This document shows positions 983-1,426 of a stretch of 1,875 nt of DNA, piece by piece (position 1 is the first letter of the stretch; each line of letters begins with the position of its first letter). This stretch comes from Escherichia phage ECO95 1-6-1: the sequence record OR845638.1, one strand, 5' to 3'. Made by a program: the position numbers and the translations under genes. The notes under the pieces are model-generated. The model was not told the origin of the DNA. It saw only the letters and a list, made by a program, of their open reading frames with translations, and made no database searches.

Positions 983-1426
983 TTAGTGAATATGCAGATA
1001 CATGAGAGAACCTAACGTTACTGAAAATACGGTCGTCAGGGCGGCGATGGTTTGCCGTACAATCTGTTTTTTTCTTCCCTTTGTTTCGCTATCCGTCGCG
1101 ATAATGGCGATATCACTATTCACTTTGAGACCTTGTCTTGGAATGGTAATAAAAAGATCGTTAATACCAAGCGCTTTAAGGTCACGTCTGATTAAATAGA
1201 GAATCTGCGTTAGATTTGCATCATTAACATAGTGGCTTCGACTTCCCCATAACGCAGTGGTTATTTTTTGTCGCTCGATAATCTCCAGATGAGCATTCTC
1301 GATGATGAAACTGAGGCATTTGGCTCTCATCGCAGTCATTTTAATAACCTGTGAATTTGAGACCGTCCTCAGTTCATATTTACCTTCATTGTAAATGCAG
1401 TTGCTATTAATGATATAAGTTTTCAT
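983..1426 (-). CDS. ToxR/CadC-like membrane-anchored transcriptional regulator: N-terminal OmpR/PhoB-type winged-helix domain, one C-terminal transmembrane helix, essentially no periplasmic domain
   Basis: Complete 147-aa ORF (ATG at 1426-1424 on the minus strand, TAA at 985-983) with an AGGAAG RBS about 6 nt upstream. Residues about 10-103 match the trans_reg_C pattern (…ELRTVSNSQVIKMTAMRAKCLSFIIENAHLEIIERQKITTALWGSRSHYVNDANLTQILYLIRRDLKALG…ITIPRQGLKV). A basic stretch KGRKKQ is followed by a hydrophobic helix TIAALTTVFSVTLGSLMYL (about residues 126-143) and only HIH beyond it. The stop lies 16 nt upstream of the muramidase start, so the two are probably co-transcribed. Confidence 0.8.
   Translation of the reverse strand: MKTYIINSNCIYNEGKYELRTVSNSQVIKMTAMRAKCLSFIIENAHLEIIERQKITTALWGSRSHYVNDANLTQILYLIRRDLKALGINDLFITIPRQGLKVNSDIAIIATDSETKGRKKQIVRQTIAALTTVFSVTLGSLMYLHIH

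Follow-up and report, generated by a model that had tools for sequence, protein, structure and literature searches.

The 1,875-bp stretch of DNA analysed here (sequence record OR845638.1, Escherichia phage ECO95 1-6-1; hereafter the window) carries on its minus strand an open reading frame (ORF) of 147 residues that is very probably ChiR (STM0017), the activator dedicated to Salmonella's chitinase type 10 secretion locus. Our confidence is high for this identity and role and lower for the details of how the protein acts. The ORF is assigned as ChiR because many Salmonella assemblies carry exactly this protein and the order of the surrounding genes matches that of the Salmonella locus. The exact sequence was found in 66,938 indexed blocks of an assembly collection, and its protein cluster, labelled 'transcriptional regulator', comprises Salmonella enterica (several subspecies) and S. 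bongori. The neighbourhood of the exact protein consists of dnaK, dnaJ, a LysR-type gene, the holin gene, the muramidase gene, chiR and a divergent GH18 chitinase gene, the same gene order as stm0012-stm0018 (PMC10109510). In complete E. coli genomes a megablast search gave no match, and the locus is absent from that species.

The window itself contains four genes, namely the holin gene chiH, the muramidase gene chiP, the 147-residue ORF and the start of a gene at position 1807 (Table 1), which at full length is a 699-residue Glyco_hydro_18 gene (chiA, in the locus L001). A Phage_holin_3_3 protein, a GH108 plus PG_binding_3 protein and a GH18 chitinase are encoded within 4 kb; a type 10 secretion locus is recognized by such a cluster of a holin, a signal-less peptidoglycan hydrolase and a large secreted cargo. 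Among 20 orthologues of ChiR, Met1 is invariant and Lys2 nearly so.

ChiR in the Literature

An earlier note on this DNA had described the ORF as a minimal membrane-tethered winged-helix regulator that has no periplasmic sensor domain and is encoded together with a muramidase, and all its essential points are already in print. Krone et al. (2023, PLoS Pathog, PMC10109510) renamed stm0017 chiR, described the product as ToxR-like and lacking a periplasmic sensor, and proposed a co-sensor. In that work deletion of chiR abolished the induction of chiA, rhamnose-driven stm0017 was sufficient for chiA promoter activity and ChiA protein in LB, and stm0017 mRNA rose on contact with polarized or mucin-producing epithelium; the dependence of ChiA secretion on the type 10 locus was also established there (PMC10109510). 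A later paper by that laboratory (2026, PMC13284979) reports that deletion of chiR abolishes reporter activity and protein for both chiH and chiP, which confirms the control of a potentially lethal enzyme that the note had suspected, and that expression of the locus is bimodal, with 70-80% of cells ON. To this confirmation the present analysis adds three inferred leads: a candidate operator, a probable chiR-chiP feedback operon and a tail-anchored form that appears to recur among enterobacterial ToxR-like proteins.

A Winged Helix of the ToxR/CadC Type at the N Terminus

The N-terminal part of ChiR is solidly predicted, by profile and by structural model, to be a winged helix of the ToxR/CadC type (OmpR/PhoB class). 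A Pfam scan of the window protein gave no match to Trans_reg_C (PF00486) at E<=1, the gathering threshold not being reached, and a family profile and structural comparison were therefore needed. The same scan gave a match to Herpes_glycoH_C at 0.045, which was set aside as spurious. Partial NCBIfam matches covered the DNA-binding ends of two regulators, RppA (5.9e-5) and HilA (0.01). A Trans_reg_C match, which the earlier note had proposed to look for, is thus missing from the window protein itself and present in half of the orthologues examined (10 of 20 at the same cut-off, best 9.1e-7).

A profile built from the orthologue family matched the DNA-binding domain of Vibrio cholerae ToxR at 5.6e-6, with everything else no better than 0.3. 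The AlphaFold2 model of ChiR has a mean predicted local distance difference test score (pLDDT) of 84.8, with blocks over residues 1-110 at 86-96, and displays an N-terminal sheet of four strands along with three helices and a wing. In a Foldseek search the best matches of the model were ToxR on ompU and toxT DNA (8b4b; target TM-score 0.82-0.84), followed by CadC (5ju7) and TcpP, the target TM-scores over the three proteins spanning 0.72-0.84. These data agree with the ToxR/CadC-type fold claimed in the note. No phospho-receiver domain of the kind found in OmpR/PhoB response regulators was detected with Pfam or NCBIfam, and the winged helix of ChiR begins at residue 1.

A Predicted Membrane Anchor with Three Residues beyond It

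The best 19-residue Kyte-Doolittle window of ChiR covers residues 126-144 (TIAALTTVFSVTLGSLMYL) and has a mean of 1.59, a marginal value. It is preceded by ETKGRKKQIVRQ, with 5 Lys/Arg in twelve residues, and followed by no basic residue; this charge distribution fits the positive-inside rule, so that an N-in, C-out anchor is predicted. A published TMHMM run likewise predicts a C-terminal transmembrane domain (PMC10109510). In the AlphaFold2 model, residues 115-146 form a separate helix (pLDDT 57-65) that is not packed confidently onto the domain. Beyond the segment the chain holds only His-Ile-His and therefore no folded periplasmic sensor domain. ChiR is accordingly predicted to be an N-in, tail-anchored regulator with a single C-terminal transmembrane helix, and the statements in the note that it ends three residues after that helix and has no periplasmic sensor hold to the residue.

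The locus was compared in six genera (Salmonella, Klebsiella, Kluyvera, Superficieibacter, Pseudocitrobacter and Scandinavium). ChiR orthologues of about 147-151 residues occur in the five genera other than Salmonella (in Klebsiella, in the oxytoca group) and also in Cronobacter. A segment at the same position is hydrophobic in most of them, with Kyte-Doolittle values of 1.36-2.52: above 2 in Scandinavium-type sequences, 1.5-2.1 in Superficieibacter and Pseudocitrobacter, and 1.36-1.71 in Klebsiella and Kluyvera. Most orthologues stop 1-8 residues beyond the hydrophobic stretch. Conservation is high over residues 1-106 and lowest in the linker (104-125), yet Salmonella, Klebsiella and Kluyvera share the same helix residues 128-139 (AALTTVFSVTLG) despite their different linkers. 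The small-residue face formed by Thr131, Ser135 and Gly139 may serve as a surface for helix-helix packing.

A profile search run exhaustively over 1.84 billion representatives yielded 1024 relatives, and the 123 best full-length ones were analysed. A transmembrane-like segment follows the winged helix in 111 of these. Beyond it lie 40-120 further residues in 90 of the 111, and 17 of the 111 end no more than 6 residues past the segment; these tail-anchored proteins are 148-211 residues long and, the closest paralogue clusters included, have Kyte-Doolittle values of 1.8-3.0. Because these 17 close relatives are built like ChiR, the sensor-less tail-anchored form is, as judged from predicted segments, a recurrent minority and no singularity. 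The Salmonella paralogues STM0029 and STM0031 also have this form (PMC10109510).

A Candidate Operator Upstream of chiA and chiH

Alignment of the chiR-chiA intergenic region of the six genera and of the region upstream of chiH in five revealed a conserved direct-repeat box, TGATGnnnnnTGATTA, of the form TGATG-N5-TGATTA, in which two TGAT units lie 10 bp apart. The box occurs in sense orientation at both genes (five genera), at a distance of 77-80 bp from the chiA start codon and of 57-70 bp ahead of chiH, and the Salmonella chiH copy lies 21 bp upstream of a -10-like TACACT. With a matrix trained on the chiH copies only, the chiA site was the best non-training hit in all five chiH-carrying loci (16.7-20.3 bits) and also the top hit in Scandinavium (14.0 bits), where no holin is called. 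The reverse test, with a matrix of chiA copies only, succeeded in four of the five chiH-carrying loci, the exception being Salmonella. The Scandinavium chiA-side box is degenerate (TGATGCTTTGTGTTTT); in this locus (L007, 7016-7141) chiR, chiP, chiA and the LysR gene are kept, and the holin call is missing between chiP and the LysR gene.

A further, degenerate copy lies on the chiR side of the intergenic region (Table 1). This copy, which was not in the training set, reaches 11.3 bits in Salmonella and 13.6 bits in Klebsiella, and with the chiA-only matrix 12.7 and 17.0, respectively; 11.3 bits is reached by about 0.7% of random 380-bp AT-rich intergenic sequences. In a repeat search, the chiR-proximal copy and the chiA box were independently paired as the two arms of an inverted repeat. 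If functional, the chiR-proximal copy would imply positive autoregulation.

We propose that TGATG-N5-TGATTA is a candidate ChiR operator common to the ChiR-dependent promoters. The ToxR consensus, TNAAA-N5-TNAAA, is a 10-bp direct repeat near -35 and has the same layout. Proteins of the OmpR family as a rule recognize direct repeats (PMC5693285); an electrophoretic mobility shift assay or a binding site for ChiR is not part of PMC10109510. Outside the window, the LysR gene stm0014 is preceded by a box-like sequence (TGATTTATCTTGAGTA, L001:12515-12530) in sense orientation, which was likewise outside the training set and is conserved in Klebsiella and Superficieibacter, that is, in three genera with Salmonella. 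On account of this conserved copy ChiR may act on stm0014 too.

Other elements of the intergenic region were considered as operators. The repeats at 1568-1602, which the note had singled out as binding sites to be assayed, are two perfect 13-bp palindromes whose conservation extends over six genera and which have their only exact copies within 20 kb here; as a ChiR site they were rejected, since the region upstream of chiH, which depends on ChiR, has no copy of them. With their dyad symmetry and T-N11-A form, they would suit a LysR-type protein such as STM0014 better than a tandem winged-helix binder. The 1697-1714 palindrome, the other site picked out in the note, did not survive as an operator unit, its left arm not being conserved outside Salmonella and its right arm being part of the box. 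A CRP-like reading of the TGTGA in the boxes was dropped because the second half-sites are poor by inspection. The intergenic region also holds an inverted repeat, CGCAG-AACGAG-CTGCG, at 1760-1775 in the presumed 5' untranslated region of chiA; the GCAG/CTGC core of this repeat is the same in five genera, shows no covariation and is conserved above its surroundings.

chiR and chiP as a Probable Bicistron

The 16-bp distance between chiR and the muramidase gene given in the note is exact, and the spacing is 15-20 bp across the six genera, in all of which the gene downstream of chiR encodes a GH108 muramidase. In a consensus scan no terminator-like or promoter-like site was found on the minus strand between or within chiR and chiP, and none of the six loci has a copy of the box above 10 bits inside chiR. 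A published reporter fragment, the 'chiP promoter (840bp)', also bears on this junction. Its length equals 16+444+380 bp, exactly what separates the start codons of chiP and chiA, i.e. chiR plus the intergenic region. The reporter plasmid therefore probably carries an intact chiR, which complicates its reading as a simple promoter probe.

From the short spacer, its conserved length, the outcome of the consensus scan and the extent of the 840-bp fragment, we infer that chiR and chiP form a bicistron driven from the chiR-chiA intergenic region. As chiP expression depends on ChiR and chiR mRNA is induced, positive autoregulation of chiR would be the simplest reading. PMC10109510 contains no co-transcription test and no statement on autoregulation, and PMC13284979 no statement on co-transcription or feedback.

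Proposed Mechanism and Alternatives

We propose that ChiR is a natural sensor-less 'DNA-binding domain plus transmembrane helix' regulator, the output of which would be set chiefly by chiR transcription and hence by the amount of ChiR. The helix would act as a membrane tether and as a dimerization device through its Thr131/Ser135/Gly139 face, a proposal made by analogy with VtrA, where the N-terminus plus transmembrane helix is active and the N-terminus alone is inactive (PMC5693285). Two winged helices would bind in tandem to TGATG-N5-TGATTA, 21-22 bp upstream of the -10 element and thus at the -35 position, with the boxes acting in sense orientation at chiA and chiH and a weaker copy upstream of the chiR-chiP unit. 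After chiR transcription has been switched on, ChiR would reinforce its own synthesis along with that of the muramidase, and this feedback could produce a tight OFF state and the reported bimodal ON state.

Several observations weigh against this proposal. The chiR-proximal box is degenerate and recognizable in Salmonella and Klebsiella only, the candidate box could belong to another factor, and the 13-bp palindromes, the most conserved element of the intergenic region, are left unexplained. For the Salmonella segment a Hessa-type hydrophobicity sum (position-independent) comes to about +1.6 kcal/mol, and membrane insertion is a prediction, PMC10109510 containing no fractionation experiment on ChiR. 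The effect of the chiR deletion on chiP could stem partly from altered operon structure instead of lost activation, and sufficiency on overexpression is compatible with a titratable inhibitor. The invariance of residues 128-139 in three genera while the linker diverges is in line with the proposal and also suggests a sequence-specific helix contact.

The last two points are what would be expected of the co-sensor gating put forward by Krone et al., in which a second membrane protein holds ChiR inactive through helix contacts, as LysP does CadC, until a mucin or epithelial signal releases it, so that the signal enters after translation and not via chiR transcription. Such gating, which we consider possible but somewhat doubtful, would also account for the answer to an external cue by a protein without a periplasmic domain. 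It sits less easily with the strong induction of chiR mRNA by the cue and with the finding that induced expression 'per se is sufficient' (PMC10109510). Nor does a partner gene stand next to chiR in the six genera, unlike the arrangement in ToxRS, TcpPH, VtrAC and MarT-FidL (PMC9214523), and the transmembrane sequence is not conserved in Superficieibacter, Scandinavium and Pseudocitrobacter, although the locus is kept. The unseen partner suggested in the earlier note is therefore a hypothesis already published, and the ToxS/TcpH-like flanking gene that the note proposed to look for is missing, no extra ORF being called at the junction. Co-sensor gating is, moreover, compatible with control through chiR transcription and not exclusive of it. 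In a related and rather unlikely variant, the Ser/Thr/Gly-rich tail-anchor helix would itself be the signal input, informed within the membrane by an unlinked partner, of which the ChiH holin is the most interesting candidate, or by a host-cue sensor. If this were true, transcription of the secretion genes would come under feedback from the state of the holin or envelope, and the sensor-less tail-anchored ToxR-types (17 of 111; possibly also RoeA-types) would be a distinct class of intramembrane-gated transcription factors.

The proposal that the amount of ChiR sets the output also has to be compared with two readings that we consider improbable. The C-terminal segment might be no membrane anchor, ChiR being soluble or peripheral with a cytoplasmic dimerization helix. 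The marginal hydropathy in Salmonella, Klebsiella and Kluyvera, the Thr/Ser-rich composition of the segment, the non-hydrophobic C-termini of a few orthologues (P0090, P0097 and P0098) and the missing fractionation data would all permit this. The five basic residues before the segment with none after it, the published TMHMM prediction and the lack of confident packing of the helix onto the domain argue for an anchor, as do the values above 2 in Scandinavium-type orthologues, those of the tail-anchored relatives and the transmembrane-like segment in 111 of 123 relatives. It is similarly improbable that chiP has a ChiR-dependent promoter of its own in the 3' part of chiR, the two genes then being neighbours and no autoregulated operon. 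The wording 'chiP promoter' (PMC13284979) points that way, and a co-transcription test is absent from both PMC10109510 and PMC13284979. Yet the 16-bp gap, with its conserved length, holds a ribosome-binding site only, chiR contains neither a promoter-like hexamer pair on the minus strand nor a box above 10 bits, and the cloned 840-bp fragment spans all of chiR and the intergenic region.

Comparison with Known Systems

With respect to ChiR of Salmonella Typhimurium (PMC10109510; PMC13284979) there is no difference in kind, the gene being the same and the locus order identical. V. cholerae ToxR and TcpP and E. coli CadC, which provided the best profile and structure matches, resemble ChiR in having an N-in winged helix followed by one transmembrane helix, and are activators that bind direct repeats near -35. 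They differ in that about 100 to 250 of their residues form a folded domain in the periplasm, whereas ChiR has three residues outside. ToxR and TcpP further have the partners ToxS and TcpH, whereas ChiR has no adjacent partner gene; in the co-component cassettes ToxR/ToxS, TcpP/TcpH, VtrA/VtrC and MarT/FidL the gene for the periplasmic partner is adjacent and usually overlapping (PMC9214523).

An experimental parallel is the N-terminal plus transmembrane truncation of VtrA from Vibrio parahaemolyticus (PMC5693285), in which the winged helix with its transmembrane helix activates, the winged helix alone is inactive, and the transmembrane helix aids oligomerization. That construct was engineered and lost responsiveness to bile, whereas ChiR is native and its locus still answers a host cue. 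Like ChiR, the Yersinia entomophaga regulator RoeA (PMC10101115) is a sensor-less protein with a CadC/PhoB-like winged helix, of about 15 kDa according to the passages quoted from that paper. It has an N-terminal helix-turn-helix and, at the C terminus, up to about 40 additional residues, which the quoted passages do not call a membrane helix. By the same passages it is encoded beside a holin/endolysin type 10 cassette and is needed for expression of the cassette and for release of the Tc toxin and chitinases (PMC10101115). No Yersinia protein was among the best 120 of 458 family-profile hits, and so this search gave no indication of homology between RoeA and ChiR.

ChiR of Serratia marcescens (chiWXYZ plus chitinases) shares the name, the role as activator of chitinase type 10 secretion and bimodal expression (PMC10109510, PMC13284979). 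It nevertheless belongs to an unrelated family, being a cytoplasmic LysR-type protein, and its Salmonella homologue is STM0014, which did not affect expression of chiA under the conditions tested (PMC10109510). In Salmonella, ChiR acts as master switch of a phage-derived secretion system associated with virulence, and how it senses mucin or polarized epithelium without a periplasmic domain is a narrow question. Positive feedback through chiR-chiP could explain the reported bimodality.

Other Features of the Locus

Coordinates of the features are collected in Table 1.

Table 1. Genes, protein regions and DNA elements of the 1,875-bp window
Feature	Position	Strand	Details and evidence
chiH (STM0015), class III holin	28..372	plus	Pfam Phage_holin_3_3, 1e-19
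Hairpin between convergent chiH and chiP, likely terminator	381..415		-19.1 kcal/mol; z = -3.65; 0/200 shuffles fold as well
chiP (STM0016), GH108 muramidase + PG_binding_3	433..966	minus	PF05838, 4e-24; PF09374, 3e-33
chiR-chiP spacer, 16 bp, CTTCCCTTTCCTTCGC	967..982	minus	Shine-Dalgarno-like AAGGGAAG; sequence inspection
chiR (STM0017), coding sequence	983..1426	minus	147 residues + stop; ATG at 1426, TAA at 983-985; ORF call
C-terminal tail His-Ile-His of ChiR	986..994	minus	sole potentially periplasmic part; conserved in Salmonella, Klebsiella, Kluyvera
Predicted C-terminal transmembrane anchor, residues 126-144, TIAALTTVFSVTLGSLMYL	995..1051	minus	hydropathy, charge distribution, published TMHMM
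Variable basic juxtamembrane linker, residues 113-125, SETKGRKKQIVRQ	1052..1090	minus	least conserved part of orthologue alignment
Predicted ToxR/CadC-type winged helix, residues 1-112	1091..1426	minus	profile match, AlphaFold2, Foldseek
Candidate chiR-proximal box, degenerate, TGAAATAATGTGATTA	1545..1560	minus	22 bp upstream of -10-like TACAAT (1522-1517)
Two perfect 13-bp palindromic repeats, TAAATGATATTTA	1568-1580, 1590-1602		22 bp start to start
Candidate chiA-proximal ChiR box, TGATGTTTTGTGATTA	1711..1726	plus	TGAT, 10-bp period; 21 bp upstream of -10-like GATTAT (1748-1753)
5' end of chiA (STM0018), GH18 chitinase, first 23 codons	1807..1875	plus	frame leaves window end; divergent from chiR

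The hairpin at 381-415, which is followed by UUUUACGCGUCUUUUUU on the plus strand, is probably a terminator common to chiH and chiP. A consensus terminator scan missed it because its T-run rule was not satisfied, and folding recovered it. For chiP, the NCBIfam match to 'holin-associated N-acetylmuramidase' is partial and under the curated cut-off. The GC content is 39% in chiR, 33% in the chiR-chiA intergenic region and 40% in chiH, against 51% in chiP, 51% in chiA and 52% in dnaK; the AT-richness of the regulatory part of the locus is compatible with silencing of the H-NS type. An Rfam scan of the window (E<=1) gave a chance snoRNA match only, the 380-bp intergenic region holding no known RNA element.

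Outside the window, an ORF of about 1000 residues (L001:4432-7428, minus in the locus) lies directly downstream of chiA and in the same direction. It is present in Salmonella, Klebsiella, Superficieibacter and Pseudocitrobacter and has no Pfam match (best DUF3291, 0.06). Pseudocitrobacter lacks chiA, and there the conserved promoter and box region of chiA is followed directly by this ORF. The ORF may be a second gene under the control of ChiR or another cargo of type 10 secretion.

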